DNA of 64,000 nt from Nemertoderma westbladi (lineage: Eukaryota > Animalia > Xenacoelomorpha). Where the stretch lies: NCBI GenBank assembly GCA_032718475.1, contig JAUCBJ010005435.1, positions 1 to 64,000 of the forward strand. The letters are read 5' to 3'. The notes beneath the pieces were generated by a model that was not told where the DNA came from, searched no databases, and worked only from the letters and a program-made list of their open reading frames with translations. Below are positions 21,743 through 59,000 of the stretch, in pieces (the first letter of the stretch is position 1; every line of letters starts with the position of its first letter). The translations under genes were made by a program, and so were the position numbers.

Positions 21743-21831
21743 TATTCTGTTTCATGAATTAATTGCCATTGCAATATGGTTATTTTATTGTATTGTTCTT
21801 ACTCATTAATTAAATTACTATTTTTGTCGAA

Positions 21832-22339: not shown

Positions 22340-25300
22340 GTAAGTATTCCTTATCATAGTTATAAGGCCTATATTATGCCTTACCATGGCCTACCTACCT
22401 ATACCTATAACACCACCGCATAGGTTTGTATGTTATATAAACGCCTAAAGTCCATGAGATACACCCTCAGCCTTAGATTCGGCTGGTGGCTTATTCAGGG
22501 ATTCACCTTGAATTTAGTTTCGACGTTTGTTTTTCCCGCCAAAAAAGGCACAGCTTAATGAACATTAAATAGGTTACAATGACTTTCAGTCAAACCAAAA
22601 CAAGTAAGTTATTAAAAGTTTTGTGATTATGGCCTGAGATGGACCAACAAACTGGTTGGTAAAGCAATTTATTTGACTCGGTCAAATAATAAATTGCGGG
22701 GATCTCAAATCTTGTGACGAACTGAGATGTGGCATTGGGATAGGGAGCAACGGCGGGGTCGATAAAATACCATTCGACGTGATTTATTACAGCGATGTAG
22801 GTTAATGTCGTTACATCTTTGTTATTCTCGTATTTTAGTTGGTATGGAAGTCTGACAACGTCGCTATTCTACCGGAGGGATGGCCCTTGGTCTACAACAA
22901 TCTCATACTCGTCCATCTTCTCGAAGTTGAACCCCACCATCTGCGTCCCGGTGATTTCTACTTCGTCGTTAAATGCCTCGCCCCCCGCACCGTAAAACTA
23001 TTCCTGAAATTCGTCCGAGATGGTTAGTAAGATAAACAAAATATTTATTATTTGTTCCCCCACTATGGAATAATATGCACAAAATGTATGTATCTATGCC
23101 ATCGTCACATCGGCTCTGAAATACTTTAAAATATAAAACAATACTTTTATTTTTTTAATCTCTGAATTCAATGCGACTGTGTCGCGCAACTGACTGCGAA
23201 TGTTACCGAAACTTCAGCCAAGTTTTATTCGTTATATTTTTTTCCTTTTACTTTTAGAATTCGAAAGTTTTTATCCCAATTCCCCATATCAAGTATAATA
23301 AGCCATTCAATTGATAATGTCTATCGTGGAGTGACTCGAACATGTTTTTTTCTAACAAATAATATACCGGTAACCAAATTTAACCATATGGAACAAGTAG
23401 TCAAGTGAATCTAGCAAAAAAATGAGAAGTATTTCGCAATCAATCCGAACCACGCATTTTGGATTCTATATTACCTTATTAATGACCAAAAAAAAGTCTA
23501 TAAAATTTTATTTTACGGATCATATGTTTATTCATGAAAATTCTGCTTAAATTTGCATAACACAAGCCAAACAAAAGGAACAGTAGGGAAAAGTAAGTAG
23601 CAAATTGGTGATGTTCCAGAATATTTTAATTAATTTCACAATAAGGTGTGATTCAATGGGAAATTAGTAATATTTACACTGGCGTGTTACACATTAATTG
23701 CTATATCTCGGTAACTAAAAGTCGCATCAAGTTTTTAAATATATCAACAACTTCACGATATATTAAGGTAACTGTTGTAAAAAAATTATACAATTCCACT
23801 GCAAGGAAATTTCATAATTTCCATTAATGTTAGTGAAGATTTTTCACATACTTAAATTGTGATTGCTCTATTGATTTTAGGTGTAATTAATTTATTTTTT
23901 TTTAGTTTGAAAACCGCAATTAGTTTATCATATAACAAATACATTTTTTGGGGATAAGGGTTTTTGAGTTCGATAAATCCGATGGGCGAGGTTACATCCA
24001 CCCGTTTAGTAGAGAAGTTGTGTAAATAAGATCCTTATATTGTACCAGCAAAAATATTATTAAAAATGGTTAAATTATTAGACAAATTTCCGTTGCTCTG
24101 GAAACTAAATTGGTAACCATATAGAAGTGCATACTTCTGTCAATCGATAGTCATTAGAGTAAAGTTTGTCTGTACGAAATTTGGAGAAAATCCCACCAAT
24201 AGACCCCTTGTTGCTATGTAAAATCCATGTTGCTAAGGAAAGAAACAGCAAATTGAAGGAGATCCGCATAATATATTTTTATAGACTTTTTTGGGGGTAT
24301 TAACAAGGTAATGTAGAATAACAAAAAATTTGGTTTGGGTGAATTGCGAATTTGTTATGGGTTGACCCCCTTTTTCGGCTAGATTGACTCGCCTAAAGTA
24401 CAACTATTTTTCTACCTGATCCATGTATTATTTTACTTGATACAGGTCGTCTTCATCACAAAATAATCTCCGAGGATTATTTCGACATGTTATTTACTCA
24501 CGAATGGCTCGTCGGTCTTCCAGAAAATACCGAAGCCAACCCTCTAAAGCACTGCGTGCTGTGTGGACCCCAAGGAGTCGTTAGGTAAGTTAGTTACACC
24601 AAGGTTCCACCTTGGAGTTAGTAGTGGTCGCATTGAATTCACATCTCCCGTAGGTCGTGGGTTCGATCCTCACATGGGCCAGGGCAGTTTTCGTTTCGGC
24701 ACGAATGCTTTAAAGGGACCAGCCAGGGCGCATCGCTGCCTTGCATCCTTAAGTAGTAGCTAAATGAGTAATGGAGTTTCCTCTGGGGAGTAAAGTTCTG
24801 GGGGGACCCTGGAAATAAGTCGTCAGACTTTGTGCGTAATCCCTGGCCTATCGGCCGAAGAAAATTTACTTTTACTTTACTTTACTTTAGTTTAATGTCT
24901 TTATCCCAATCTGTTAGTAACATGTTGCTTGTTGTTGATTACCCCGCCGTAAAAGATAACTGTTTTTTTTACCCCCTTAAATTTATTTTTATCAGGTTAA
25001 CATGGGAAGAAGTTACCCACCCTAAATGCCAGTCGTCCGATACAATATTGATGCATTCTCTTCGCCGCTCAAAGAAATTCCAATCCAAAGCTTCCCGCGC
25101 CAGTATGTCCAGCACGGGCTCAGTTAGCTCGGAGGCAGAACTTACAGACAGGTAGGTTAGGTTGTTCGGTTATTAATTGTTGGTCAGCCGGTCTGTAAGT
25201 GTCCGTCAAGGTTGGTCGGTTATTGTTGGTCAGCCGGTAGTGTCGGTCACTTAACTTACAGACAGGTAGGTTAGGTTGGTCGGTTATTGTTGGTCAGCCG

Positions 25301-25940
25301 GTTTGTAGTGTCGGTCACTTAACTAACCGACAGGTAGGTTAGGTTGGTCGGTTATTGTTGGTCAGCCGGTTTGTAGTGTCGGTCACTTAACTAACAGACA
25401 GGTAGGTTAGGTTGGTCGGTTATTGTTGGTCAGCCGGTTTGTAGTGTCGGTCACTTAACTTACAGACAGGTAGGTTAGGTTGGTCGGTTATTGTTGGTCA
25501 GCCGGTAGTGTCGGTCACTTAACTTACAGACAGGTAGGTTAGGTTGGTTATTGTTGGTCAGCCTGTTTGTAGCGTCGGTCACTGAATTTACTTTGGAGTA
25601 GCGCCAACTTAATGTTGCCTGTGCTGTGCGGCTTATTTATTATGAACTATTGTGTCTGTCCGAGTCCGTCTAATATTTGTTGCAGTCTCATGTACAGGCA
25701 TTATACGGTAAGGTATATATAGATCCTGTTCCTGTACTATAATACTCTAAGTGACATCCTCCAATATTTTTTCCACTTCTGAACAAAAAGCCCTAGACCA
25801 TGTATTAATTACAGTCGTATTATCACCTTAACCACAATTCATTGATTTGAGTTTGTTTGTAGTTTGCAGCTTTACGTGTAAGTCTGGTTTGATTTTGTTT
25901 GCCTTTCTTCGTCTACTCACTCTCTTTTTCTGTCTGTCTG

Positions 25941-26005
<65 letters not shown>

Positions 26006-29000
26006 GCCTGTCTGTCTGTCTGTGTCTGTCTGTCCTCTATTAGTATTAACTAAGTATTTTCTTTCCAACAGTCCGAGTCCGAAACCGTCGCCAAAGATTT
26101 CAGATAAATTCCGTAAACACCGGAGTCCCTCGATCGACTTCAACGGATTGAACCGGTCGATATTCGGTAGAAAATCATCTTCGAAACTCCAACAGCCTAT
26201 CAAAGAGGAATCCTTCCGCGATCGCAGTAAAACACATCCAGACTCTAATAAATCTAACAGTCTAACTGTGGGCCTATCCGCAAATTGTTTAAATAATTAC
26301 AGTAAGGAAACCCCGCCCCCCTCACATGCGGAATCGGTTCCCCCATCTAGTGCCCCCTACCTCCCCCCCACATCCCCCCTCCTCCGTCGCCACCCCAAGC
26401 TGAACGCCGTCGGCCGTCGGTCAGCTCGCGATCGTCCCGCTTCCATCGCCGACGCCTCCAGTCTGGGCCTCGCAGCCGGCGGTTCCCTCCCAACCTCCGG
26501 AGTCTCCACGCCCAGTCTCCCGGGGTTACCGAAGTCCCAGACCTACACGTCCGGCGTCGGGGAGGTCAGCTCCACTTCCGTCGGTTACGGTGACGTCATC
26601 GTTGCCAGGCGACTACACGAGGCGCTGGAACACAGCGCGCAGACGGTGCGCGGCGGATGGATCGAGACTGACCTGGACGCTGCCATGGCAACGGTTTCCT
26701 CGACGACCGGAGACGACGCAGAGCCTCCCTCGCCTACAGCCGACTTAGCTCAACGCCTTGCCGAAACTGAAAGTTTATTAGGCAACGCCGGAACTCCTCA
26801 TTCCTCTCTTCATTCAGAAAGTTAGTTGAAATTTATTCACTTATATTATCTGGTTGTTCTCTTACAGGGGCGGCCAAGTCAATGACTATATAATTGTGTC
26901 ATCTATGTAACATCATAAAGTTGTAAGTTCATACGTAGAACGTAAATACACTTAACAATATATTTTGGTAGTTATTCGATCGAAAATAATGTCGCTAAAA
27001 ATCTATCGAAATTTTTTTCATTTGCGATGAGTTTCGATTAATTTTTTAACTATAGAATTTTAAACTTTTTTTAACAAAAAGCTTAACATACAGTTTTTTA
27101 TTAATTTTAATTATTCTGTAATTTTGAATGTTAAAATTTTAGAACAAAACTAAAAGTACATAAACACACAGTATTCTAATACTCATAATGCATTTGTACT
27201 CTATCAATCCATTCATTATTTAATCTAAATATAACAAACCGTTCTCAACCAAATTGTAAATTGTAAAGTGCGACTTTACACAAATAATTTTTTTGAAATA
27301 TTAAGCATATTATTATTTTTAGAGTACCAGTTAAATGACTGGGAGGAAATCTTGGGATAGGTGTAACGCCCACGGCCCACCCCTACCCTCGGGTAGCAGC
27401 TATCGAAAGAGGAGCCTTCGGGTCGCCTTCGGGTCGCCTCCGGCTTCGACCGACTGTTTGCTTGCTTGATTCTTTATAAAATAAAATTTTTATAATAGTA
27501 ACCAATAAATAATTGATAATTTTTTTATATATTACATTGGTAATAATCGAAAATCATCGGTAATCAATCGAAAATTTCAGTAAATCGATCGAAATATTTG
27601 GTAAATTTCGATGGACAACGCTAACTATAAATCACCAAGAATTTAGTATTATGAGGATGGAGTGGATGGAGTTAATTTATTTTTATTTCAATTAAATTTG
27701 TGATAAATAATTAAAAGTCAAATATTCAGACATCAAATTTCAAATTTGGCTACTTTTGACTGGAATGACTCTATTGTGCAATCCAGGGTTACCTAAATTT
27801 GTCTACGTAATACCCACACGTTAGTGGAGCCTCCCCACAGGGCGAAGTTAGCAATCGTAGCACATAAGGTGCGAATAAGGCCCTACTCGAGCAGCTGGGT
27901 GCACCCAAGCAAATTATATTGACACAGTTTAATTTAATCAAAGATCGAGAGTTAATCTGATAAAATAAGCCTGCCACCTTTCGCCGACTGACAGACAGAC
28001 CGACCGACCGACATTCATCGGTTAATAGCGATACCCGTATATGCTATAAATCTCTCTTTTTCGGGGTTCGTCCTTGAACTTGTAACTAAAGGAAGCATTA
28101 CTGTGCGGTGCGGGAGATGGGCTATCAATCCGTTATATCAGTGCACATAGTTATTGGCGTGTAGTTAACTTCTTTAAAGTAACCGGCCATTGTTTGTTTA
28201 CATGTATGTATACCCATCATATTTACCTAAAACGCTTTTATAATTAATTTAGATTAATACTTTTTTTTGCGATAATTTGGCGGCTACTTTTGTCACTTTT
28301 GACGAGAATCAACCACGTAATAATTTATATTTTTGATATGCATATTCAATTCAAACTTTTTTTTTCAATAATTATCTTTATAATTAATTATTGGCCATTT
28401 ATAGTTATCAGAAGAAAGATATATATCTTGTATGATTCACTAATAATAAACTACCTCAGCAATAAACCTGTTTTTTTATTCTCTCTCTTGTAGGACCCTC
28501 TCCATATACGAATTCCTTCATTGCCAGCCAACTATGCATCTCCATACCCCGCCAATGTATAGAAGTTAACTTCGAATTGTTACATTCCGGTTCTTGTATC
28601 ATTCCAGGTATGTAACATTCAGTTAATCCTATGTGATTCTCTTTACTCTAATAACAGTATTTATCATTTTAAATGATTGTTATTCCAAAGTTTGTACTTT
28701 AACGTGGTTTTCGTTCTGTTGTACATTATTACTAGAGTATACGTGGCTATATCTCACAATTCAGTTACATTTAATTAATAGCGAATAAAGGAAATGCTTT
28801 GGATATATTGGGATATTATTGGGATATCAATATTATTTATGGGGAGGGGATACTTCATTAAATATTTTGGACGCGATATTAGGCGAGTTCTTATCAATGT
28901 AACTATATCAACTAAACTCTGAACGTCGTTTTTAAATGAACATATCCAATTGGTTAAATGCTTTTTTGGTTAATTATGATGGTGACAGGAAATGGAAGGT

Positions 29001-32000
29001 TTGTGTTTAACATAGAGTAATTATTACTTCATTGTCTGTCCAGGAACGCGAGATTTAAATCAGAGACCGGTTATTGAATTGAACACAGCCAACCCAATTT
29101 GGTCTGGAACAGAACTCAGCAGTCTGGATGTCGGAAAGCTGCTTCTTTACTACTCCAATATACCGAGGTGAGTTTTATAAACTCAACCCAGTTAGACTTA
29201 AGCGGTGCTATACTATGACTGTGGATAATATAGACTACGTCCTACGTCATTAACATTTGATGCCTTCTCATATAACTCTCCATTTATTTAGCACACAACT
29301 AACATAAACTCTATCATAATGCAACTCCCATTTATTTATCACACGGCAACCATAAACTTTCTCATATGTAACTCCCATTTATTTCTCACACAGTTCCCAT
29401 AAACTTTCTCATATGTAACTCCCATTAATTTCTCACACAGTTCCCATAAACTTTCTCATATGTAACTCCCATTCATTTATCACACGGCATCCATAAACTT
29501 TCTCATATGTAACTCCCATTCATTTCTCACACAGTTCCCATAAACTTTCTCATATGTAACTCCCATTAATTTCTCACAAGGCATCCATAAACTTTCTCAT
29601 ATGTAACTCCCATTCATTTCTCACACAGTTCCCACAAACTTTGTCATATGTAACTCCCATTCATTTCTCACACAGTTCCCATAAACTTTCTCATATGTAA
29701 CTCCCATTCATTTCTCACAAGGCATCCATAAACTTTCTCATATGTAACTCCCATTCATTTCTCACACAGTTCCCATAACCTTTCTCATATGTAACTCCCA
29801 TTAATTTCTCAAAAGGCATCCATAAACTTTCTCATATGTAACTCCCATTCATTTCTCACACAGTTCCCATAAACTTTCTCATATGTAACTCCCATTAATT
29901 TCTCACACAGTTCCCATAAACTTTTTCATATGTAACTCCCATTCATTTATCACACGGCACCCATAAACTTTCTCATATGTAACTCCCATTCATTTCTCAC
30001 ACAGTTCCCATAAACTTTCTCATATGTAACTCCCATTCATTTCTCACACAGTTCCCATAAACTTTCTCGTATGTAACTCCCATTCATTTATCACACGGCA
30101 CCCATAAACTTTCTCACATGTAACTCCCATTCATTTATCACACGGCATCCATAAACTTTTTCATATGTAACTCCCATTCCTTTATCACACGGCACCGATA
30201 AACTTTCTCATATGTAACTCCCATTTATTTATCACACGGCATCCATAAACTTTTTCATATGTAACTCCCATTCATTTATCACACGGCATCCATAAACTTT
30301 TTCATATGTAACTCCCATTCCTTTATCACACGGCACCCATAAACTTTCTCATATGTAACTCCCATTTATTTATCACACGGCATCCATAAACTTTTTCATA
30401 TGTAACTCCCATTCATTTATCACACGGCATCCATAAACTTTTTCATATGTAACTCCCATTCCTTTATCACACGGCACCGATAAACTTTCTCATATGTAAC
30501 TCACATAGCACCCGACCCATTAATTTTCTCATATGTATCTCACATTTATTTCTCACACAACTGTCTTATAAACTTTCTCTTTTATTTCTCACACAATTAT
30601 CTTATAAACTCTCTCATTTATTTCTCACATAGCATCCATAAACTTTCTCATATGTAACTCACATTTATTTCTCACACAACTCTCATATAAACTTCCTCAT
30701 TTATTTCTCACACAAATCTCTTATAAACTCTCTCATTTATTTCTCACATAGCATCCATAAGCTTTCTCATATGTAACTCACATTTATTTCTCACACGGCA
30801 CCCATAAACCTTCTCATATGTAACTCACATTTATTTCTCACACATCTCTCTTATAAACTTCCTCATTTATTTCTCACACAAATCTCTTATAAACTATCTC
30901 ATTTATTTCTCACACATCTCTCTCATAAACATCCTCACCTCATTTATTTCTCACACAAATCTCTTATAAACTCTCTCATTTATTTCTCACATCTCTCTTA
31001 TAAACTTCCTCATTTATTTCTCACACAAATCTCTTATAAACTTTCTCATTTATTTCTCACACAGTTCCCAGGATTTAACTCGCGGTATGACAGTACTCGT
31101 TGACGCTCGCTGGGCTCTGTTATCTGCGGCTGATATTCTAAGTAAATCGATTGTCTACTTCGAAACAATGAGACCGGGGTGTATTCGTAGACTTCATATC
31201 GTCTGTCAAAATTCGACTCAGGTAAGACCTGAACAACATTATCTATATTAATTTTATCATAATTTGAAAAATATTACCAAGACACGTCACAGAATTTATA
31301 TTTTTGTAATATTATCGATTTCCCGGTTCCCACATATCACTAATAGCCACCACACCACACCAATCGTTCGCCTATTCTTTAATTTCTTGTTTATAATTCT
31401 CAGTTATATTGATCTGTTTGCAGGTATTCATAGAGAAGAAATGTGCTGTAACTCGTATTGGAACGCTAACGTTAACGTTTAGCAACTCAATGCAGTCTTT
31501 ATTGGATATTTCCGATCGCCATCAATTAACCACCTACTCCGGGGGTCGATATACGTACCTGCACGAGGATTGGATCCGTTTCAGAATGAAGGTGAGTTCG
31601 AACACGGGGATTGGATCCGGTTCAGAATGAAGGTGAGTTCGAACACGGGGATTGGATCCTGTTCAGAATGAAGGTGAGTTCGAACACGGGGATTGGATCC
31701 GGTTCAGAATGAAGGTGAGTTCGAACACGGGGATTGGATCCGTTTCAGAATGAAGGTGAGTTCGAACACGGGGATTGGATCCGTTTCAGAATGAAGGTGA
31801 GTTCGAACACGGGGATTGGATCCGTTTCAGAATGAAGGTGAGTTCGAACACGGGGATTGGATCCGTTTCAGAATGAAGGTGAGTTCGAACACGGGGATTG
31901 GATCCGTTTCAGAATGAAGGTGAGTTCGAACACGGGGATTGGATCCGTTTCAGAATGAAGGTGAGTTCGAACACGGGGATTGGATCCGGTTCAGAATGAA

Positions 32001-35000
32001 GGTGAGTTCGAACGCGGGGATTGGATCCGTTTCAGAATGAAGGTGAGTTCGAACACGGGGATTGGATCCGGTTCAGAATGAAGGTGAGTTCGAACACGGG
32101 GATTGGATCCGGTTCAGAATGAAGGTGAGTTCGAACACGGGGATTGGATCCGGTTCAGAATGAAGGTGAGTTCGAACACGGGGATTGGATCCGTTTCAGA
32201 ATGAAGGTGAGTTCGAACACGGGGATTGGATCCGTTTCAGAATGAAGGTGAGTTCGAACACGGGGATTGGATCCGGTTCAGAATGAAGGTGAGTTCGAAC
32301 GCGGGGATTGGATCCGTTTCAGAATGAAGGTGAGTTCGAACACGGGGATTGGATTCGGTTCAGAATGAAGGTGAGTTCGAACACGAGGATTGGATCCGGT
32401 TCAGAATGAAGGTGAGTTCGAACACGGGGATTGGATCCGGTTCAGAATGAAGGTGAGTTCGAACACGGGGATTGGATTCGGTTCAGAATGAAGGTGAGTT
32501 CGAACACGAGGATTGGATCCGGTTCAGAATGAAGGTGAGTTCGAACACGGGGATTGGATCCGGTTCAGAATGAAGGTGAGTTCGAACACGAGGATTGGAT
32601 CCGGTTCAGAATGAAGGTGAGTTCGAACACGGGGATTGGATCCGGTTCAGAATGAAGGTGAGTTCGAACACGGGGATTGGATCCGTTTCAGAATGAAGGT
32701 GAGTTCGAACACGGGGATTGGATCCGGTTCAGAATGAAGGTGAGTTCGAACACGGGGATTGGATCCGGTTCAGAATGAAGGTGAGTTCGAACACGGGGAT
32801 TGGATCCGTTTCAGAATGAAGGTGAGTTCGAACACGGGGATTGGATCCGTTTCAGAATGAAGGTGAGTTCGAACACGAGGATTGGATCCGGTTCAGAATG
32901 AAGGTGAGTTCGAACACGGGGATTGGATCCGGTTCAGAATGAAGGTGAGTTCGAACACGGGGATTGGATCCGGTTCAGAATGAAGGTGAGTTCGAACACG
33001 GGGATTGGATCCGGTTCAGAATGAAGGTGAGTTCGAACACGGGGATTGGATCCGGTTCAGAATGAAGGTGAGTTCGAACACGGGGATTGGATCCGGTTCA
33101 GAATGAAGGTGAGTTCGAACACGGGGATTGGATCCGGTTCAGAATGAAGGTGAGTTCGAACACGGGGATTGGATCCGGTTCAGAATGAAGGTTGAGTTCG
33201 AACACGGGGATTGGATCCGGTTCAGAATGAAGGTGAGTTCGAACACGGGGATTGGATCCGGTTCAGAATGAAGGTGAGTTCGAACACGGGGATTGGATCC
33301 GGTTCAGAATGAAGGTGAGTTCGAACACGGGGATTGGATCCGGTTCAGAATGAAGGTGAGTTCGAACACGGGGATTGGATCCGGTTCAGAATGAAGGTGA
33401 GTTCGAACGCGGGGATATTTATGTTATACTTACTTAGTATTGATTGACACACAACCTAGCTAAGTCTCTCTATATCCCTCGTTGCGTTCTCTCTCTGTAG
33501 TTGGAACCATTATCGGAACTGTGTAAGGCGGCGGCTAGTTTCCTCCGTCGGATGCACACGGAACTCTCTACGGAATCCATCCCTTCCTTCGCTCGGGATA
33601 TATCATCCCTACACGCCCATCACGAGAGTCGCATTGCCAGTATCCACGAAGATGCGAGGGTAGATCGGTTGCTAAGCGACGGTCCCACTGCTCTCAAGTC
33701 ACTCAAGAACGAATCAATGTCGCTTGGTTAGTGTGGGTTTCTTGTGTCTGTCTAGTCTAACATTGTATCAATTGGTTAGTCAGTTTACTGTGTCTGTCTA
33801 TCATTGTATCAATTGGTTAGTGTAAGTTTACTGTGTCTGTCTAACATTGTATCAATTGGTATTGTGTCTGTCTAACATTGTATCAATTGTTTAGTGTTAG
33901 TTTATTGTGTCTGTCTAACATTGTACCAATTTGTTAGTGTCTGTTTATTGTGTCTGTCTAACATTGTATCAATTGGTTAGTGTCTGTTTATTGTGTCTGT
34001 CTAACATTGTACCAATTGGTTAGTGTCTGTTTATTGTGTCTGTCTAACATTGTATCAATTGGTAGTGTCGGATTATTGTGTCGTCTGACATTGTATCAAT
34101 TGGTTAGTGTCGGTTTATTGTGTCTGTCTATCATTGTATCAATTGGTTAGTGTCGGTTTATTGTGTTGTCTAACATTGTATCAATTGGTTAGTGTCGGTT
34201 TATTGTGTCTGTCTATCATTGTATCAATTGGTTAGTGTCGGTTTATTGTGTCTGTCTATCATCGTATCAATTGGTAGTGTCGGTTTATTGTGTCTGTCTA
34301 ACATTGTATCAATTGGTTAGTGTCGGTTTATTGTGTCTGTCTAACATTGTATCAATTGGTAGTGTCGGTTTATTGTGTCTGTCTAACATTGTATCAATTG
34401 GTTAGTGTCGGTTTATTGTGTCTGTCTAACATTGTATCAATTGGTAGTGTCGGTTTATTGTGTCTGTCTAACATTGTATCAATTGGTTAGTGTCGGTTTA
34501 TTGTATCTGTCTAACATTGTATCAATTGGTAGTGTCGGTTTATTGTGTCTGTCTAACATTGTATCAATTGGTTAGTATCGGTTTCTTGTGTCGTCTAACA
34601 TTGTATCAATTGGTTAGTGTCGGTTTATTGTGTTTGTCTAACATTGTATCAATTGGTTAGTGTCGGTTTATTGTGTCGTCTAACATTGTATCAATTGGTA
34701 GTGTCGGTTTATTGTGTCTGTCTATCATTGTATCAATTGGTAGTGTCGGTTTATTGTGTCGTCTAACATTGTATCAATTGGTAGTGTCGGTTTATTGTGT
34801 TTGTCTAACATTCTATCAATTGGTTAGTGTCGGTTTATTGTGTATGATTAACATTGTATCAATTGGTTAGTGTCGGTTTATTGTGTCTGTCTAACATTGT
34901 ATCAATTGGTTAGTTTCGATTTATTGTGTCTGTCTAACATTGTTTCAATTGGTTAGTGTCGGTTTATTGTGTCTGTCAAACATTCTATCAATTGGTTAGT

Positions 35001-44000: not shown

Positions 44001-47000
44001 TTTTCCTCACTAGCAGGGTAAGCCTAAAGTCATTAGTTTGAAATGTTGTGCACCTGCATTTATATATGTTGTGCACCTGCATAGATATGCATTTATAACT
44101 TCATGCATATCTACCGGAACTTCAGAAACGGTCATGTAAATTAACTACAAAATTTTCCAACTGGTTATTTTCTTCCGATAGGCATTTGATTGGGCTCTGT
44201 CGGGAATGAAATACCTCGCCAAAATGAATATGCAACAAGTTATTAACGAAGATGGTTGTAAACGGTTGCTAAGATACCTGGAACGCTACCAACGGAAGCA
44301 TCCACCAATAGCGAACGATACCTTCAAGAAAATGTCGGATTTAGCTCAATCGATGGGTAGGTCTAGTCTCAATGTTAACATCCATCACTCAATTGTCCAT
44401 ATAGATTCAATTAATTTATAAGTTAAACAGGATGAAGAGAAGTCTACGGACACCATCAGGAGACACGGGTTGGAAATATGAATTCCGAAGTTCTAAAATT
44501 CATCTTATTTAACTTCAACTTCTATTAATCCAGAGTCCTGTTTAATCTTAGAACATTTCAGGAAGTTTCAATGTTTCCTTGGAATCTTAATTTATTGGTT
44601 GCATGTTTAACAATTCTTTTAGGTACTCAAAGAATTTTGCAGCAGGTAGAGTTCGCCCAATCCCGTTGCCGAGAAACCGAACAGTTGCTAAGGAAACGGA
44701 CTATGTCTCTAACGAAAGCCGCCAATCAGTTCCACGTGGAGGACGAACCTAGCAGCGCGAACTCTTCGTTCCACACGCAGCCGACGGCCGCCCAACCCGG
44801 CGACGGAGACAACCTCTCGATGTGCACCCACGTCGACGAGCAGGTCGTACCGGAGTACTCGATGGACGAAGCCTCCGAGTCGGAGAGTCTCCCGTCGGAT
44901 CGGTTCGCCCGCCGTCCCTCGCAACCGAGCGGCCACCGACCCTCCCAACCGCCCCCCATGCCGGTCTACTACCACCGTCGGACGGACTCGGCCCAGACGG
45001 ACCCCACCCCGGGACGATTAAACCCGTCGCCCCCCGGAGACCCGTCGCCCAGACAACCCGACATCACGGACTCGGTTCCTTCTCGTCTCCGCGGCCGCTC
45101 TCACTCCATGCAGGACCTCGGGCCCGACCGCTCTGACGACGACGTCGCCTCCAACCTACTGGAAGCGCAGCAACAGGCCGAGTTGCTGCAGATCGGGATC
45201 GATCCAAAGATAAACAATCAGTTGCCTAAGCGACCGGCAGCCAAGAAGGTTGGTTACACTTGGTCTATTTGCGGTAGTCTGTGTTCTCTATGTGTAGCGG
45301 TTGACGTACTAGCCATGCCGCATGGCGGTGCGGGTTGGAGGTATTAACGTTCACTAATTACAATCGTTCTCTTCCGTGGAATTATTTTTCATTTTCTTAA
45401 AATATTAATTATTTCTGGTTTTAATGCATCCCTATACTTCACACAGACAGAGTACCATATCCTTTGTTTCTGGTGTACGGGATATGCTAATATAATATGT
45501 GGCGGCATGTGTGTACGAGATTAACATATTGCTATGGTAACAATCTCTAAGGGTGCCGCCACACAAAGAATCAATGCCGATTATCGTATAATTCGGTGTA
45601 TTATGGCGCCATGTCATCGTAACTGACTCGATTACTGGGTTGTTTTAGGTAAATATGAGTCCGGCCCATGAGGAGAGCTCTATAATGACCCCGGTGGTAT
45701 CGGCACAGTTGCGGAACATCATGTCGGAACTCATACAAACCGAACGGGACTACATCTCTTCTTTAGACTATGTTATAGAACATTACGTGCCTCACACAGA
45801 CCGCAGTGACCTACCCCAAGGATTACGGGGCAGACGAACTGTCGTCTTCTGTAACATCGAGAAAATACGGGACTTCCACAAACATTACTTCCTATCCAGT
45901 ATTCAGGGTAAGTTATCACATGTTCTTCTTATTAAAATGTACTAATTACTGTACAGGATAATTTATACTAATTTAATTTAAAAATTATAATACTATCAAG
46001 CAAGACCAAAAAAACGTAAATTGTTTGGATAAAAATATTCGCAGCAGTTCCCTTGACTGCATAAGTTTTAATAATTAAATTAAATTATAATTATAATTAA
46101 CCAAGTATCAGTAGTTGGCATGGTTTATTTGGTTATGGTTAACATTAATGGTTAACACATAAAAAATATGGATCTTTAATAGTAACCTATTATGTTCTAG
46201 AATATGAAGATAACCCTTTGAATATTGGGGTTGCCTTCATACGACACGAGAAGAGTTTCAACCTCTACACTCTGTACAACAAGAATAAACCGTGTTCAGA
46301 CAGTCTGCTGGCGGATCACAGCGATTACTTCCACATAAAACAGAATGAACTTGGCGATAAACTCAATCTCGCGAGCTACTTACTCAAACCGGTGCAACGG
46401 ATGACCAAGTACGCCTTACTAATACAGGACCTACTTAAACATGCGCCACCTGGCGACAATCCCTCGAATAATCTAAAGTCTGCCCTCGATATGGTGCGAT
46501 TCACACTTCGTCATGGCAACGACTTGCTCGCTCTGGAGAGTCTAATGCATTGCGATTTTAATATCAACGAACAGGGGCAGTTATTGATGCAGGATGAATT
46601 CTTAGTATGGCAGGTAGGTGGCGCACCAAGAGTATTAGTAAACCCGCAGCAAATCAAATACAAATCCTTGTAAACCTCGCAGCATAATCTCAATGTTATA
46701 ATATTAATATGTTTCATGGTTTTTCTTTCAGGGGCGTAAGAAGTTTATGAGACACGTGTTCTTGTTTCAAGAATTAGTTGTGTTTAGTAAACGAAAGAAA
46801 AGCCGTAGAGGGGCTGATGTATATCACTATAAATCTAGTTACAAGGTGAGTATGGGACCATGTAGGGTGACAAGGTTAGTATGGGACCATGTAGGGTGAC
46901 AAGGTTAGTATGGGACCATGTAGGATGACAAGGTGAGTATGGGACCATGTAGGGTGACAAGGTGAGTATGGGACCGTGTAGGGTGACAGGTGAGTATGGG

Positions 47001-50000
47001 ACCGTGTAGGGTGACAAGGTGAGTATGGGACCATGTAGGGTGACAAGGTGAGTATGGGACCATGTAGGGTGACAAGGTGAGTATGGGACCATGTAGGGTG
47101 ACAAGGTGAGTATGGGACCGTGTAGGGTGACAAGGTGAGTATGGGACCATGTAGGGTGACAAGGTGAGTATGGGACCATGTAGGGTGACAAGGTGAGTAT
47201 GGGACCGTGTAGGGTGACAAGGTGAGTATGGGACCGTGTATGGTGACAAGGTGAATATGGGACCGTGTAGGGTGACAAGGTGAGTATGGGACCATGTAGG
47301 GTGACAAGGTGAGTATGGGACCGTGTATGGTGACAAGGTGAATATGGGACCGTGTAGGGTGACAAGGTGAGTATGGGACCATGTAGGGTGACAAGGTGAG
47401 TATGGGACCGTGTAGGGTGACAAGGTGAGTATGGGACCGTGTAGGGTGACAAGGTGAGTATGGGACCGTCTAGGGTGACAAGGTGAGTATGGGACCATGT
47501 AGAGTGACAAGGTCCATGTAGGGTGACAAAGGTGAGTATGGGACCATGTAGGGTGACAAGGTGAGTATGGGACCATGTAGGGTGACAATGTGAGTATGGG
47601 ACCATGTAGGGTGACAAGGTGAGTATGGGACCGTGTAGGGCGACAAGGTGAGTATGGGACCGTCTAGGGTGACAAGGTGAGTATGGGACCATGTAGAGTG
47701 ACAAGGTCCATGTAGGGTGACAAAGGTGAGTATGGGACCATGTAGGGTGACAAGGTGAGTATGGGACCATGTAGGGTGACAAGGTGAGTATGGGACCATG
47801 TAGGGTGACAAAGGTGAGTATGGGACCATGTAGGGTGACAAGGTGAGTATGGGACCATGTAGGGTGACAAGGTGAGTATGGGACCATGTAGGGTGACAAA
47901 GGTGAGTATGGGACCATGTAGGGTGACAAGGTGAGTATGGGACCATGTAGGGTGACAAGGTGAGTATGGGACCATGTAGGGTGACAAGGTGAGTATGGGA
48001 CCGTGTAGGGTGACAAGGTGAGTATGGGACCATGTAGGGTGACAAGGTGAGTATGGGACCATGTAGGGTGACAAGGTGAGTATGGGACCATGTAGGGTGA
48101 CAAGGTGAGTATGGGACCATGTAGGGTGACAAAGGTGAGTATGGGACCATTTAGGGTGACAAGGTGAGTATGGGACCATGTAGGGTGACAAGGTGAGTAT
48201 GGGACCATGTAGGGTGACAAGGTGAGTATGGGACCGTGTAGGGTGACAAGGTGAGTATGGGACCGTGTAGGGTGACAAGGTGAGTATGGGACCGTGTAGG
48301 GTGACAAGGTGAGTATGGGACCGTGTAGGGTGACAAGGTGAGTATGGGACCATGTAGGGCGACAAGGTGAGTATGGGACCATGTAGGGCGACAAGGTGAT
48401 TATGGGACCATGTAGGGTGACAAGGTGAGTATGGGACCATGTAGGGTGACAAGGTGAGTATGGGACCATGTAGGGTGATAAGGTGAGTATGGGACCATGT
48501 AGGGTGACAAGGTAAGTATGGGACCATGTAGGGTGACAAGGTGAGTATGGGACCATGTAGGGTGACAATGTGAGTATGGGACCATGTAGGGTGACAAGGT
48601 GAGTATGGGACCATGTAGGGTGACAAGGTGAGTATGGGACCATGTAGGGTGACAAGGTGAGTATGGGACCATGTAGGGTGACAAGGTGAGTATGGGACCA
48701 TGTAGGGTGACAAGGTGAGTATGGGACCATGTAGGGTGACAAGGTGAGTATGGGACCATGTAGGGTGACAAGGTGAGTATGGGACCGTGTAGGGTGACAA
48801 GGTGAGTATGGGACCATGTAGGGTGACAAGGTGAGTATGGGACCATGTAGGGTGACAAGGTGAGTATGGGACCGTGTAGGGTGACAAGGTGAGTATGGGA
48901 CCGTGTATGGTGACAAGGTGAATATGGGACCGTGTAGGGTGACAAGGTGAGTATGGGACCATGTAGGGTGACAAGGTGAGTATGGGACCGTGTATGGTGA
49001 CAAGGTGAATATGGGACCGTGTAGGGTGACAAGGTGAGTATGGGACCGTGTAGGGTGACAAGGTGAGTATGGGACCATGTAGGGTGACAAGGTGAGTATG
49101 GGACCATGTAGGGTGATAAGGTGAGTATGGGACCGTGTAGGGTGACAAGGTGAGTATGGGACCATGTAGGGTGACAAGGTGAGTATGGGACCGTGTAGGG
49201 TGACAAGGTGAGTATGGGACCGTGTAGGGTGACAAGGTGAGTATGGGACCATGTAGGGTGACAAGGTGAGTATGGGACCGTGTAGGGTGACAAGGTGAGT
49301 ATGGGACCATGTAGGGTGACAAGGTGAGTGAGTATGGGACCGTGTAGGGTGACAAGGTGAGTATGGGACCATGTAGGGTGACAAGGTGAGTATGGGACCG
49401 TGTAGGGTGACAAGGTGAGTATGGGACCGTGTAGGGTGACAAGGTGAGTATGGGACCGTGTAGGGTGACAAGGTGAGTATGGGACCATGTAGGGTGACAA
49501 GGTGAGTATGGGACCGTGTAGGGTGACAAGGTGAGTATGGGACCGTGTAGGGTAACAAGGTGAGTATGGGACCATGTAGGGTGACAAGGTGAGTATGGGG
49601 CCGTGTAGGGTGACAAGGTGAGTATGGGACCATGTAGGGTGACAAGGTGAGTATGGGACCATGTAGGGTGACAAGGTGAGTATGGGACCGTGTATGGTGA
49701 CAAGGTGAGCATGGGACCGTGTAGGGTGACAAGGTGAGTATGGGACCGTGTAGGGCGACAAGGTGAGTATGGGACCATGTAGGGTGACAAGGTGAGTATG
49801 GGTCCGTGTAGGGTGACAAGGTGAGTATGGGACCGTGTAGGGTGACAAGGTGAGTGTGGGACCGTGTAGGGCGACAAGGTGAGTATGGGACCGTGTAGGG
49901 TGACAAGGTGAGTATGGGACCGTGTATGGTGACAAGGTGAGCATGGGAGCGTGTAGGGTGACAAGGTGAGTATGGGACCGTGTAGGGCGACAAGGTGAGT

Positions 50001-53000
50001 ATGGGACCATGTAGGGCGACAAGGTGAGTATGGGACCGTGTAGGGTGACTAGGTGAGTATGGGACCATGTAGGGTGACAAGGTGAGTATGGGACCATGTA
50101 GGGTGACAAGGTGAGTATGGGACCGTGTAGGGTGACAAGGTGAGTGTGGGACCGTGTAGGGCGACAAGGTGAGTATGGGACCGTGTAGGGTGACAATGTG
50201 AGTATGGGACCATGTAGGGCGACAAGGTGAGTATGGGACCGTGTAGGGTGACAAGGTGAGTATGGGACCGTGTAGGGTGACAAGGTGAGCATGGGACCGT
50301 GTAGGGCGACAAGGTGAGTATGGGACCGTGTATAGGGTGACAAGGTGAGTATGGGACCGTGTAGGGTGACAAGGTGAGTATGGGACCGTGTAGGGTGACA
50401 AGGTGAGTATGTGACCGTGTAGGGCGACAAGGTGAGTATGGGACCGTGTAGGGTGACAAGGTGAGTATGGGAGGACCATGTAGGGTGACAAAGGTGAGTA
50501 TGGGACCGTGTATGGTGACAAGGTGAGTATGGGACCGTGTAGGGTGACAAGGTGAGTATGGGACCATGTAGGGTGACAAGGTGAGTATGGGACCGTGTAT
50601 GGTGACAAGGTGAGTATGGGACCGTGTATAGGGTGACAAGGTGAGTATGGGACCATGTAGGGTGACAAGGTGAGTATGGGACCGTGTAGGGTGACAAGGT
50701 GAGTATGGGACCGTGTAGGGTGACAAGGTGAGTATGGGACCGTGTAGGGTGACAAGGTGAGTATGGGAGGACCATGTAGGGTGACAAAGGTGAGTATGGG
50801 ACCGTGTATGGTGACAAGGTGAGTATGGGACCATGTAGGGTGACAAGGTGAGTATGGGACCGTGTAGGGTGACAAGGTGAGTATGGGACCGTGTAGGGTG
50901 ACAAGGTGAGTATGGGACCGTGTAGGGTGACAAGGTGAGTATGGGAGGACCATGTAGGGTGACAAAGGTGAGTATGGGACCGTGTAGGGCGACAAAGTGA
51001 GTATGGGACCGTGTAGGGTGACAAGGTGAGTATGGGACCGTGTATGGTGACAAGGTGGGTATGGGACCGTGTATAGGGTGACAAGGTGAGTATGGGACCA
51101 TGTAGGGTGAAAAGGTGAGTATGGGACCGTGTAGGGTGACAAGGTGAGTATGGGACCGTGTAGGGTGACAAGGTGAGTATGGGAGGACCATGTAGGGTGA
51201 CAAAGGTGAGTATGGGACCGTGTATGGTGACAAGGTGAGTATGGGACCGTGTAGGGTGACAAGGTGAGTATGGGACCATGTAGGGTGACAAGGTGAGTAT
51301 GGGACCATGTAGGGTGACAAGGTGAGTATGGGACCGTGTATGGTGACAAGGTGGGTATGGGACCGTGTATAGGGTGACAAGGTGAGTATGGGACCATGTA
51401 GGGTGACAAGGTGAGTATGGGACCGTGTAGGGTGACAAGGTGAGTATGGGACCGTGTAGGGTGACAAGGTGAGTATGGGACCTTGTAGGGTGACAATGTG
51501 AGTATGGGAGGACCATGTAGGGTGACAAAGGTGAGTATGGGACCGTGTATGGTGACAAGGTGAGTATGGGACCATGTAGGGTGACAAGGTGAGTATGGGA
51601 CCGTGTAGGGTGACAAGGTGAGTATGGGACCATGTAGGGTGACAAGGTGAGTATGGGACCGTGTAGGGTGACAAGGTGAGTATGGGAGGACCATTTAGGG
51701 TGACAAAGGTGAGTATGGGACCGTGTATGGTGACAAGGTGAGTATGGGACCATGTAGGGTGACAAGGTGAGTATGGGACCGTGTATGGTGACAAGGTGGG
51801 TATGGGACCGTGTATAGGGTGACAAGGTGAGTATGGGACCATGTAGGGTGAAAAGGTGAGTATGGGACCGTGTAGGGTGACAAGGTGAGTATGGGACCAT
51901 GTAGGGTGACAAAGTGAGTATGGGACCGTGTAGGGTGACAAGGTGAGTATGGGACCATGTAGGGTGACAAGGTGAGTATGGGACCGTGTAGGGTGACAAG
52001 GTGAGTATGGGACCGTGTAGGGTGACAAGGTGAGTATGGGACCGTGTAGTGTGACAAGGTGAGTATGGGACCATGTAGGGTGACAAGGTGAGTATGGGAC
52101 CGTGTAGGGTGACAAGGTGAGTATGGGACCGTGTAGGGTGACAAGGTGAGTATGGGACCATGTAGGGTGACAAGGTGAGTATGGGACCGTGTAGGGTAAC
52201 AAGGTGAGTATGGGACCATGTAGGGTGACAGGTGAGTATGGGACCATGTAGGGTGACAAGGTGAGTATGGGACCGTGTATGGTGACAAGGTGAGCATGGG
52301 ACCGTGTAGGGTGACAAGGTGAGTATGGGACCGTGTAGGGCGACAAGGTGAGTATGGGACCATGTAGGGTGACAAGGTGAGTATGGGACCGTGTAGGGTG
52401 ACAAGGTGAGTATAGGACCGTGTAGGGTGACAAGGTGAGTATGGGACCGTGTAGGGCGACAAGGTGAGTATGGGACCGTGTACGGTGACAAGGTGAGTAT
52501 GGGACCATGTAGGGTGACAAGGTGAGTATGGGACCGTGTAGGGTGACAAGGTGGGTATGGGACCGTGTATGGTGACAAGGTGAGCATGGGACCGTGTAGG
52601 GTGACAAGGTGGGTATGGGACCGTGTATGGTGACAAGGTGAGCATGGGACCGTGTAGGGTGACAAGGTGAGTATGGGACCGTGTAGGGCGACAAGGTGAG
52701 TATGGGACCATGTAGGGTGACAAGGTGAGTATGGGACCGTGTAGGGTGACAAGGTGAGTATGGGACCGTGTAGGGTGACAAGGTGAGTATGGGACCGTGT
52801 AGGGTGACAAGGTGAGTATGGGACCGTGTAGGGCGACAAGGTGAGTATGGGACCATGTAGGGTGACAAGGTGAGTATGGGACCGTGTAGGGTGACAAGGT
52901 GAGTATGGGACCGTGTATGGTGACAGGTGAATATGGGACCGTGTAGGGTGACAAGGTGAGTATGGGACCATGTAGGGTGACAAGGTGAGTATGGGACCAT

Positions 53001-56000
53001 GTAGGGTGACAAGGTGAGTATGGGACCGTCAAGGTGAGTATGGGACCGTGTATGGTGCAATTAGTTTAAGTTAATAGATTATCGGTAAATGGCATTAATT
53101 AATTAATATATTACATGCGTATATACCAGTGCAATATTTGGTTATAATGGCCATACCGGGTATTTAATTGTATACCTCACTAATTTACCGCCTATACTAA
53201 GTTTATTTTCATATTATAATCCTTTAACTGAGGAATTCATCATACTAATTGTTTGTTTGTCGGTTTTTTTGGTTTGTACTGTAAGTAAATTCTTTCTTAT
53301 CATTTTGTAGATGTCCGAATTGGGTTTGACTCAGACCATCGGTGACTCTGGTTATAAGTTCGGGATTTGGTTCCGTCGATATACCTCGGCTGATAGTTTC
53401 ACTTTACAGGCCAAAAGTAGCGAAGTTAAGGAAATCTGGGTCGCCGAGTTAACCAACCTATTACTTCATCAGGTTAGCCGAGTTAGCCAACCTATTACTT
53501 CATCAGGTTAGCCGAGTTAGCCAACCTATTACTTCATCAGGTTAGCCGAGTTAGCCAACCTATTACTTCATCAGGTTAGCCGAGTTAACCAACCTATTAC
53601 TTCATCAGGTTAGCCGAGTTAGCCAACCTATTACTTCATCAGGTTAGCCGAGTTAGCCAACCTATTACTTCATCAGGTTAGCCGAGTTAGCCAACCTATT
53701 ACTTCATCAGGTTAGCCGAGTTAGCCAACCTATTACTTCATCAGGTTAACCGAGTTAACCAACCTATTACTCCATCAGGTTAGCCGAGTTAGCCAACCTA
53801 TTACTTCATCAGGTTAGCCGAGTTAACCAACCTATTACTTCATCAGGTTAGCCGAGTTAGCCAACCTATTACTTGATCAGGTTAGCCGAGTTAGCCAACC
53901 TATTACTTGATCAGGTTAGCCGAGTTAGCCAACCTATTACTTCATCAGGTTAGCCGAGTTAACCAACCTATTACTTCATCAGGTTAGCCGAGTTAACCAA
54001 CCTATTACTTCATCAGGTTAGCCGAGTTAGCCAACCTATTACTTCATCAGGTTAGCCGAGTTAGCCAACCTATTACTTGATCAGGTTAGCCGAGTTAACC
54101 AACCTATTACTTCATCAGGTTAGCCGATTTAGCCAACCTATTACTTCATCAGGTTATCCGAGTTAGCCAACCTATTACTTCATCAGGTTAGCCGAGTTAG
54201 CCAACCTATTACTTGATCAGGTTAGCCGAGTTAGCCAACCTATTACTTGATCAGGTTAGCCGAGTTAACCAACCTATTACTTGATCTGGTTAGCCGAGTT
54301 AACCAACCTATTACTTCATCAGGTTAGCCGAGTTAGCCAACCTATTACTTGATCAGGTTAGCAGAGTTAGCCAACCTATTACTTGATCAGGTTAGACGAG
54401 TTAACCAACCTATTACTTGATCAGGTTAGCCGAGTTAACCAACCTATTACTTCATCAGGTTAGCCGAGTTAGCCAACCTATTACTTGATCAGGTTAGCCG
54501 AGTTAGCCAACCTATTACTTGATCAGGTTAGCCGAGTTAACCAACCTATTACTTGATCAGGTTAGCCGAGTTAACCAACCTATTACTTCATCAGGTTAGC
54601 CGAGTTAACCAACCTATTACTTCATCAGGTTAGCCGAGTTAACCAACCTATTACTTCATCAGGTTAGCCGAGTTAACCAACCTATTACTTGATCAGATTA
54701 GCAGAGTTAACCAACCTATTACTTCATCAGGTTAGCCGAGTTAGCCAACCTATTACTTCATCAGATTAATTAATAACCTACAACTTAATCTTTATTCACT
54801 AATTACTAATTTTTTATTACATATCCATTTATATATCATTTACATTTACTCTTTTTATAGCGACTTATATGTTATTTATTCACTATATTTATAAATTGTT
54901 CAATTACGATTTATAATTTTTTTTATTAACTAACTATTTTAATTTTAATTACTCAGTAACGAACTATTAGATACTCAATAACGAACTATTAATTATTTAG
55001 TAAGGAGTATTTAGCAAGAAAATAAAAAATTAAGTATTAAAAATAGTATATTTTCTAGCACAAAATAAGCCATGCTTCTGTGTTCGGAAATGTTGGCGCC
55101 TATGAAGTGGCTATAGTATTTAGTATAGTGGGGTCTGTGGCTGGGGGGGGGGGGGGGGGTGGTGGTATCAAGTATAGTCTTAGTATAATTAATAGTAGTA
55201 TGCAGTTTTAATATTGTTGTTTAATTGTTATATATTATATTATATTATGAGTTATTAAGATTGTCTGAACGTTTGTTTTCAGGCGATGAGGAACCGGGAA
55301 CGCCAACTATCTGAGAATAATGCGATGGGAGTTGGAAGTAAACCATCGCTGACTCTAAAGAACAGTTCGTCCAGTATAACCAACAGAGCGCTGGCCTACC
55401 TGAAAACAGGCCGAGGTAAGTATAACCAACAGAGCCCTGGCCTACCTGAAAACAGGCCGAGGTAAGTATAACAAACAGAGCGCTGGCCTACCTGAAAACA
55501 GGCCGAGGTAAGTATAACCAACAGAGCGCTGGCCTACCTGAAAACAGGCCGAGGTAAGTATAACCAACAGAGCGCTGACCTACCTGAAAACAGGCCGAGG
55601 TAAGTATAACCAACAGAGCGCTGACCTACCTGAAAACAGGCCGAGGTAAGTATAACCAACAGAGCGCTGGCCTATACCTGAAAACAGGCCGAGGTAAGTA
55701 TAACCAACAGAGCGCTGGCCTTTCTGAAAACAGGCCGAGGTAAGTATAACCAACAGAGCGCTGGCCTACCTGAAAACAGGCCGAGGTAAGTATAACCAAC
55801 AGAGCGCTGGCCTATACCTGAAAACAGGCCGAGGTAAGTATAACCAACAGAGCGCTGGCCTTTCTGAAAACAGGCCGAGGTAAGTATAACCAACAGAGCG
55901 CTGGCCTACCTGAAAACAGGCCGAGGTAAGTATAACCAACAGAGCGCTGACCTACCTGAAAACAGGCCGAGGTAAGTATAACCAACAGAGCGCTGACCTA

Positions 56001-59000
56001 CCTGAAAACAGGCCGAGGTAAGTATAACCAACAGAGCGCTGGCCTTCCTGAAAACAGGCCGAGGTAAGTATAACCAACAGAGCGCTGGCCTATACCTGAA
56101 AACAGGCCGAGGTAAGTATAACCAACAGAGCGCTGGCCTTTCTGAAAACAGGCCGAGGTAAGTATAACCAACAGAGCGCTGGCCTTCCTGAAAACAGTCC
56201 GAGGTAACTATAACCAACAGAGCGCTGACCTACCTGAAAACAAGCCGAGGTAAGTATAACCAACAGAGCGCTGGCCTTTCTGAAAACAGGCCGAGGTAAG
56301 TATAACCAACAGAGCGCTGGCCTACCTGAAAACAAGCCGAGGTAAGTATAACCAACAGAGCGCTGACCTACCTGAAAACAGGCCGAGGTAACTATAACCA
56401 ACAGAGCGCTGACCTACCTGAAAACAAGCCGAGGTAAGTATAACCAACAGAGCGCTGACCTACCTGAAAACAGGCCGAGGTAACTATAACCAACAGAGCG
56501 CTGACCTACCTGAAAACAAGCCGAGGTAAGTATAACCAACAGAGCGCTGGCCTACCTGAAAACAGGCCGAGGTAAGTATAACCAACAGAGCGCTGGCCTA
56601 CCTGAAAACAAGCCGAGGTAAGTATAACCAACAGAGCGCTGGCCTTTCTGAAAACAGGCCGAGGTAAGTATAACCAACAGAGCGCTGGCCTTTCTGAAAA
56701 CAAGCCTAGGTAATATTGCTGTAATTTAGTAGTGAAGGGGGGGGGGGGGGGGGGGGCTGACTTACTTAGTGGACATTCTGTGCTTTGTGACTGGTGGTGT
56801 GGCAAATTTCGTGACACTTTGTGACTGGGTGGGAGGGTGTCTGAAATGTTTCACAATTTATAAGGTGGGTGTTGTTAGGTTGGCACTGTTAGCCATGCTG
56901 GGAGGTGGGTAAATGTTGACACATTGTGATGAAGGGGGGGGGGGGGGGGGACCTGTCTGAATCGGTCGATTCAGACAAGGTATTCTTTTAGTAACCCTTT
57001 CAACCAACAATGTTTTCATACATGTACATTTACTTCCAGGTGCCCGGGCACGTAATTCTATAGCGGTCTCGCCCGCCGACAACATGGGTGCATCGTGCAG
57101 TAAACGCCCACATTCAGTGATCTCTTACTCCAGTGGTAGTAGTTCAAATTCCTCAGTTATATCATCAAGTAAGTTTATTAATTTCTACTCGAGAATTTAT
57201 GAGTAATGACTATTTACATACTTGTGTGTAAAGTATTACAGTGTGATGATCCGAGTGTCTTTGTTACACGAACGAACGTTAGTGAGTGAGTGAAAATAAA
57301 GCTCCGAGGATCAGAACACTGTAAAGTACTTTGCAACAAGTATATATGTAGTTTTATTCCAAAATGTTAACATTACGAAATGATTGTATATATATTATAA
57401 GTGATAGAAACTGCACAAATTATATTAGTTGCTGTATAAATAAATGTAAAATGACATAAATTATGTTATAAATAAGTTAGCTTATATTTATGGTGGCGCG
57501 TGGAGCCATGTTATAATAATATAGCTAGGCCCTACTGGTTATTAATAGCTATACCCCGCCTACCGGTAGGTAATGCAGTAGGCCTATCTGGCTGTCAGGT
57601 AAATTTCCACCTATTGTTTACGTTTCCATTTCCACCTATTGTTTACCTGGTATCCAATGACGGCGTTAAGTAATGTCCCCTTAGTGGACATTACTTAACG
57701 CCGTCATGGGTTACCACGTAAACAATAACACCAAATACAATACTAAATGTACAGGCCAATACAATGCTGTAATGTCCTTTAAAGTTTTAAAGTGCTAAAT
57801 AACAACTCGCTGTTAATACTAACGGCGTTGAGTAATGTTACAATATTGGAATAAAGTAACATTATCGTATTTGCAATAAATTAATATTTTTAAATGTTAA
57901 ATATAAACATTCACATTCAATTCAAGAAAAACAACTTGGAATTTTTGTTGCCATTTTGTTCCTTTTTGGTAATTAATTATATCAATTTGGTAGTTAATAT
58001 TATATTAAATTGACAAACTCCTTGAATACATATAGTCAGGAACTTTCGTAAGAATAAATTCCCTATAACCAGTTGATATGTCGTACATTAATAATTATTT
58101 GTCCCACAAGTTATAACTTTGCATTCTTGGTTTCCTAGGTTACACGCCGTTCTACCACAGTGGTTGCTATGACCCCGCCGCCCACCAACGACCCCAGTTG
58201 TCACAGCAACGCAGTAGCGAGAGTTACGGAGACTCGAGTCCGGTTGACGCAGTCAGCCCCGAGCCGCCCGTCGTTGGTGCCGGGCTAACATCTGGTTCAC
58301 CTTCGGAGAGATTCGTTTCCCAAATATCCCAGTAAGTTGAAGTAAAATCCGTAAGTTCCTATTTGTTGCAGTTCACTATACCCTCGGTTAGACTTAAACA
58401 CCAGTCTATACCGACGTTCATGTCTGCAAATATCGTTATTAGCTGGTCCTGATTACCTTGGCTAATTATACAATTCCCAAGGGTAATTATGCCATGCTGA
58501 CATTGTAGTTACGAACTTAGTGGCCGGAACATACAGAAAGACTGTCTTATAATAAATAATTTAAAAAGTTTATATTTATAGGCAGATTTTGTTCGATCTT
58601 TATTCGAATTCTCATTAGTTTTTAACGTACCGCTTTATTAATTAATAGTCATCGCCTGTCAATTCATACACTATATATCGTGACCATAGAGCCAGAACAA
58701 CACATACCACACTACTTTTTGGTGAGTGTTGTTCTGGCTCTTTGATGGTCACGATGTGTTAGACCAAGAAGTTCAACTGCGGAGATATTAAAAATTATCC
58801 TTCTATACGGGATATTTTACTAATTAACACCTAACTTTTTTCTGTAAAGCGTTCTTTCTGTATATATATACAAAAAGTACTAACTTAATTTTTTTTTATA
58901 AGGAAACAGTTTACTTAGCTAGTATATATACATTATACACACTATTTTAGTATTATGTTGAGCCTCCAGGGGGCTGGGGGGAAGAACTGGGGCGAGATTC

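Follow-up and report, generated by a model that had tools for sequence, protein, structure and literature searches.

In amphioxus, minisatellite-like arrays in which an exon-intron boundary, 5' or 3', is duplicated in tandem are known as mirages and were described in globin genes and Adh3. The available part of that account reports that splicing is undisturbed by them, that the arrays vary in length and evolve in concert, and that the generating mechanism is unclear; the hosts are Adh3, with units of 10 to 72 bp, and the globins BflGb6 and BflGb9 (PMC3087553). The part available of a second paper adds troponin C and PGBD5 (PMC3902484). Human minisatellites can have the same anatomy. Intervening sequence 7 (IVS7) of F7 carries 5 to 9 copies of a 37-bp unit made of 4 exon and 33 intron nucleotides (nt), CBS intron 13 has 15 to 20 copies, 6-16 has 25 pseudo-sites, and further cases are lamin B2 (100 bp) and PDGF (81 bp); the most upstream donor is chosen in F7, by 5'-to-3' scanning, and two pseudo-sites are also used in 6-16 and CBS (PMC1557585, available part). 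When analyzing a window of 64,000 nt from the xenacoelomorph Nemertoderma westbladi (GenBank assembly GCA_032718475.1, contig JAUCBJ010005435.1, positions 1 to 64,000), we found seven boundary arrays in one gene, whose predicted protein marks it as a puratrophin-1/PLEKHG4-like RhoGEF gene. A sequence-only reading had pointed to these arrays and knew of no described system with such a pattern. This does not stand, as the amphioxus and human arrays share the anatomy. The pattern belongs to the named, little-studied mirage type and is notable here for its size and density.

The gene model was built from 24 candidate exons adjusted to AG/GT boundaries, which give a single open frame of 1,686 amino acids, with GT-AG at all 23 introns. 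A junction word was defined for every donor and every acceptor (23 of each), and its copies in the adjoining intron were counted. Six donors (25152, 31592, 33727, 46846, 53473, and 55416) and one acceptor (31065) were found to be copied (Table 1), and the other 39 splice sites had no copy of their junction word in the adjacent intron. The same seven sites and periods that had been claimed were thus recovered from 46 candidates. The earlier estimate of about 540 donor-like copies also holds, with 534 extra donor positions, or 540 including the six true donors; the arrays, estimated at about 20 kb, total 22,001 bp of the 45.7-kb gene. GT stands in register in 494 of the 534 extra copies. At D5, all five extra donors read CAG/GTAGGT, and the first unit is rearranged and 114 bp long. 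The units span their junctions, with exon shares from 3 to 43 nt. The weakest case is D11, which begins within 3 nt of the donor and, with so few contiguous exon bases in its unit, is better described as starting at the junction than as spanning it.

Table 1. Host gene and junction arrays in the window (D, donor; A, acceptor)
Feature	Position	Strand	Description
Predicted puratrophin-1/PLEKHG4-like RhoGEF gene	17577..63279	+	Open frame, protein matches, Pfam; exons 1 and 24 least certain
D5 donor array	25139..25591	+	68-bp unit, 13 exon nt, 5 extra donors
A9 acceptor array	29265..31070	+	47-bp unit, 6 exon nt, ~41 copies
D10 donor array	31562..33416	+	41-bp unit, 30 exon nt, 44 extra donor positions, 9-nt overhang
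D11 donor array	33724..42725	+	43-bp unit, 3 contiguous exon nt, 208 extra copies, 9.0 kb
D19 donor array	46841..53058	+	29-bp unit, 5 exon nt, 211 extra donors, 6.2 kb
D20 donor array	53443..54768	+	34-bp unit, 30 exon nt, 38 extra copies
D21 donor array	55373..56713	+	46-bp unit, 43 exon nt, 28 extra donors

The units are unrelated to each other, as had been proposed. Among 45 pairs of 10 units, the best was D5 with D11, at an uncorrected p of 0.02, which is not significant, and nothing beyond chance matches of 11 to 20 nt to any junction unit was found elsewhere in the window. An introner or other mobile repeat family was therefore ruled out, having neither a sequence common to different sites nor copies elsewhere in the window. 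Each array is a local copy of its own junction, with exon and intron bases, which agrees with the earlier argument that spliced mRNA was not the source. The arrays had also been said always to extend into the intron and to leave the frame intact; this follows from taking the outermost site as the real one and is not separate evidence. The ratio of six donors to one acceptor is not a significant bias (p 0.125), and AG precedes the donor at 5/6 array sites and 7/17 non-array sites (p 0.15).

Five of six mirage features are found at this locus, the sixth being length variation, which has been shown in amphioxus. As in the available descriptions of mirages, the tandem unit spans a 5' or 3' boundary and its end copy is the real junction (with 3 to 43 exon nt here), the unit lengths of 29 to 68 bp lie within the 10 to 160 bp seen there, and many but not all copies retain GT or AG. 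Splicing is normal at D20 and D21, as read from one spliced contig. Concerted evolution within arrays, with divergent copies at the edge, can be seen from copies that are 96 to 99% identical to the consensus, from 7 to 47 distinct units per array in structured variant blocks, and from the odd first units of D5 and D11. In variant maps of D11 and D19, blocks of unit types recur, as expected of unequal exchange or conversion. At A9, the 47-bp unit becomes a 36-bp derivative toward the exon. The scale is different: a single array here can reach about 210 copies or 9 kb, and one gene has seven arrays, against 3 to 6 units in BflGb6 in the text available. The host is also no lancelet, and its protein forms a long branch. 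In the human arrays, as described in the part of the source available, the first unit likewise spans the donor, identical pseudo-donors follow downstream and the most upstream site is selected, and the few exon bases in the D11 and D19 units resemble F7. There, however, one array is found per gene, with at most about 25 copies, and the pseudo-site use of 6-16 and CBS was not seen at D20 and D21, the two sites checked here.

We compared positions 54660 to 55560 with four runs of short-read contigs. In sample S2, from another study, the D21 donor runs back into exon-derived sequence in record 16 and in record 24, the latter with 38 nt to either side of the repeat junction. D20 repeat junctions are seen in record 9, whose shorter side has 17 nt, and in record 17, where it has 27 nt (our rule was 31 nt); record 10 joins the last D20 unit to the unique intron flank. 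These two arrays, of the seven, are therefore not assembly artefacts. Run X4 contains a 1,389-nt contig joining exons 20, 21, and 22 with one unit each. A 139-nt piece of it equals exon 21 with no difference, at its loose ends are the part of exon 20 that precedes the first unit and the beginning of exon 22, and no depth is seen over the later D21 copies. Runs X1 to X3 do not cover exon 21, which has no evidential weight; relative to the flank, contig depth over D21 units is far lower in X2 than in X1, although such depth does not measure copy number. Although labelled 'DNA?', the run is probably an RNA run, given this spliced contig. With one unit per array in it, this transcript uses the first donor at D20 and D21. 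In alignments with 12 homologues, the protein runs without gaps across A9, D10, D11, D19, and D20 (D5 lies in unconserved sequence), and we infer that normal splicing is kept at A9, D10, D11, and D19. An in-frame stop lies 1 to 51 nt into the intron at every donor array, and no later donor at any of them is in frame and ahead of that stop. Slips to later donors would therefore likely be removed by nonsense-mediated decay.

The acceptor array has a pattern of its own. AG is kept in 12 to 13 of its roughly 41 copies, namely, in 10 of 17 distal copies but only 2 to 3 of about 24 proximal ones, and the copies nearer the exon mostly have GG, AA, or AT instead. Ten copies are exact decoy acceptors, all of them at least 1 kb away on the upstream side; the true acceptor is preceded by 301 AG-free nt, compared with 15 to 78 at the other 22 acceptors. 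A Fisher p of 0.001 for the proximal loss of AG is invalid, as the copies are related. The loss could be selection against close decoys or one variant spreading.

For the question of whether boundaries attract arrays, each array was collapsed to one unit and seeds were placed uniformly under six null models. Seven of the nine strong arrays of the gene are at junctions, with 0.84 expected (P 1.4e-6), and in introns 2 to 22 all seven strong arrays are. With weak repeats included, it is 7 of 15, with 1.15 expected (P 4.5e-5). In the short-intron core it is 7 of 12, with 1.64 expected (P 2.9e-4) or 2.14 if abutting counts (P 1.7e-3), and in the whole window 7 of 26, with 1.01 expected (P 3.9e-5). 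In this gene, arrays are thus commoner at junctions than uniform seeding predicts (7 against 0.8 to 2.1), as had been suspected, with a 3- to 8-fold excess across the nulls and P from 1.4e-6 to 1.7e-3. Since P stays at or below 1.7e-3 throughout, the shortness of the introns does not by itself account for the excess in this gene. These P values are post hoc and overstate it, because the window was picked for the pattern out of a very large scan.

The GC content is 50% in exons and 34% in array-free intron. Four junction arrays have 47 to 53%, D20 has 42%, and D11 and A9 have 34%, while the three strong non-junction arrays have 49 to 59%. A composition bias in array seeding is therefore plausible but incomplete as an explanation. 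On the sense strand, four of the six donor arrays have a G skew of 0.30 to 0.60, D20 and D21 have none, and A9 is C skewed. When collapsed to one unit, the array-bearing introns measure 95 to 535 bp, with a median of 329 bp compared with 405 bp in the others. These ordinary sizes indicate that existing introns were lengthened. Intron creation was considered under the Rogers model, in which an intron is gained by tandem duplication of AG/GT (PMC3087553, available part). AG/GT is present in 5/6 donor units, but the model was ruled out, as the collapsed introns keep 95 to 535 bp, one unit included, with a unique remainder of ordinary size, and no new intron is evident.

We consider it probable that the arrays are seven independent mirage minisatellites, each likely born from a single local duplication and likely tolerated because the true splice site is still used. 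The first duplication may have come about by replication slippage or unequal exchange. The Haber-Louis model places minisatellite birth between flanking repeats of 5 to 10 bp (review PMC6947457, available part). It fits the overhangs beyond whole units at D10 (9 nt), D11 (10 nt, the donor motif itself), and D5 (about 7 nt, read by eye), so that in three of the six donor cases the duplication may have occurred across a short repeat of 7 to 10 nt. It does not fit D19, D20, and D21, with overhangs of 0, 0, and 1 nt, and is silent on splice junctions in the text available. Three of six overhangs reaching at least 7 nt has a P of 6e-5 under chance overlap, and all six being at most 10 nt has a P of 3e-4 under random truncation; A9 does not fit cleanly to whole units plus a short overhang. 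At D10 (31562 to 31570), the exon copy encodes the acidic residue of a conserved HEDW-like motif, and most intron copies have a G that would give Gly. The flank of the last copy also has the G form, which fits an array seeded from an intronic short repeat. Later slippage, conversion, and unequal exchange would have expanded the arrays blockwise. The 5'-most donor and the 3'-most acceptor would win, and after a slip to a later donor the frame would shift or a stop would soon follow. Since the RNA at two sites contains only one copy, the repeats are likely harmless. The excess at junctions would most likely combine a modest seeding bias, short ancestral introns, loss of exon-internal arrays, and the selection of this window, the bias arising from GC-rich exon edges and from donor-like words acting as short repeats in an intron background of 34% GC.

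Several observations weigh against this explanation. Half of the donor arrays lack microhomology, and a last copy cut short would leave an overhang as well. The D11 and A9 arrays, as poor in GC as the introns, do not fit a GC bias. The D20 records of S2 fall below the 31-nt rule on one side of the repeat junction, and the RNA covers 2/7 sites in one run of contigs, which drop rare isoforms. All six uniform nulls leave the junction excess unexplained; a 3-fold junction weight still leaves P at 0.014 to 0.044, and about 5-fold is needed to remove it. The main rival is junction-directed mutagenesis, which would seed 30- to 70-bp duplications at boundaries several-fold above intron interiors, with expansion and tolerance as in the mirage explanation and with polymerase pausing and R-loops in cotranscriptional splicing, nucleosome edges, or break repair as candidate agents. 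The counts of strong arrays speak for it (0.8 to 1.2 expected at junctions), as does the sense-strand G skew of four donor arrays, such a skew favouring R-loops. However, this is a single gene picked for its pattern, the excess shrinks to about 3-fold (P 1.7e-3) once weak arrays are counted and slack is allowed, and composition bias is not separated from junction position. The skew is missing at D20 and D21 and reversed to C at A9, and the most G-skewed array (13.7 to 15.1 kb, 0.74) is not at a known junction. We regard this rival as rather unlikely. The related general claim, that junctions in this lineage are hot spots for 30- to 70-bp tandem duplications, 4- to 8-fold above intron interiors after composition matching, is doubtful but worth keeping in view.

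It had also been suggested that the multiplied sites are retained for a function, as U1 landing pads, as splicing enhancers, or as a source of decay-bound isoforms tuning expression. In its favour, most copies keep GT and none of the seven unit lengths is a multiple of 3 (P 0.059). In a test on five arrays (leaving out D5 and A9, all first units, and any unit whose length was off by more than 6 nt), however, the copied donor motif had 0.60 variant alleles per site, compared with 0.49 elsewhere in the unit (p 0.41; p 0.35 when GT is taken alone). A donor motif that varies like the rest of the unit argues against U1 binding, and the suggested function finds no support. The retention of GT is in line with the identity of young copies (96 to 99%), GT is lost in 37/208 copies of D11, and D20 and D21 are plainly spliced in the X4 contig. 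The scarcity of AG near the true A9 acceptor may be selection, against decoys rather than for them. Retention for function is thus improbable, and still less credit is due to an assembly artefact or to dispersed repeats that abut exons by chance. For an artefact, it can be said that support from the second sample is limited to D20 and D21 and that array lengths come from the assembly alone. Against it are the repeat junctions of those two arrays in another study and the structured variant blocks, and dispersed repeats are opposed by the lack of unit matches elsewhere in the window and by units that include up to 43 nt of the gene's own coding sequence.

The assignment of the host gene comes from its predicted protein. 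With the DH-domain exon as the query, 500 of 699 candidate proteins matched at an E value of at most 0.001, and among the 120 matches listed the named ones were mostly puratrophin-1/PLEKHG4-like, with up to 63% identity. The best matches of the whole protein were from the hemichordates Saccoglossus and Glandiceps and the amphioxus Branchiostoma, at 36 to 45%. Of seven exons scanned with Pfam, two had RhoGEF (PF00621), one had PH (PF22697), and four had no domain; Rfam at gathering thresholds gave no match. In a FastTree phylogeny of 28 proteins, the host protein is a long branch among deuterostome sequences, with an unsure placement and at most 40% identity to any of the 27 others. Exon 24 of the model is putative, and hence so is the acceptor paired with donor 23. 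Within intron 23, a 141-bp direct duplicate (58366 to 58503 and 62728 to 62868, 96% identity) starts in both copies at an acceptor-like TTGCAG, a possible alternative last exon.

Other repeats were noted in the window. Upstream of the first coding exon, positions 13721 to 15147 hold the complex G-skewed array with periods of 25, 34, 50, and 84 bp and a degenerate copy at 15525 to 15606. Donor-like words near 13606 and 13665 open it, so that an unannotated 5' untranslated exon may have given rise to it as a mirage. Intron 1 contains a 21-bp array (18107 to 18799, about 33 copies), about 470 bp from the donor and not at a known junction. A TCTG microsatellite (25929 to 26034) ends 38 bp upstream of the exon 6 acceptor. 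Nested inverted repeats (424 bp, 83%; 153 bp, 85%) flank a central segment at 20070 to 21744 and have partial copies at 581 to 794, resembling a dispersed element. Two inverted 23-bp arrays at 61543 to 61905 form a large palindrome, possibly small transposon ends.

The available part of PMC10078293 deals with human repeats affecting splicing and does not cover array origin, and in the literature searched, with subscription journals outside its scope, the word mirage was used in this sense in two papers only, and no genome-wide test of junction enrichment in any invertebrate was found. The locus is a test bed for splice-site choice by the spliceosome, which settles on one donor in a row of about 210 identical ones and on one acceptor in the presence of 10 exact decoys upstream. 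The mechanism generating mirages has been called unclear in the text available (PMC3087553), and a genome with such a density would make the question of junction enrichment testable. Enrichment that persisted after composition matching would tie the birthplaces of satellites to splicing. In that case, satellite origin would be directed by transcription or splicing, and mirage expansion would be a main driver of intron growth, accounting for 22 of the 45.7 kb in this gene.

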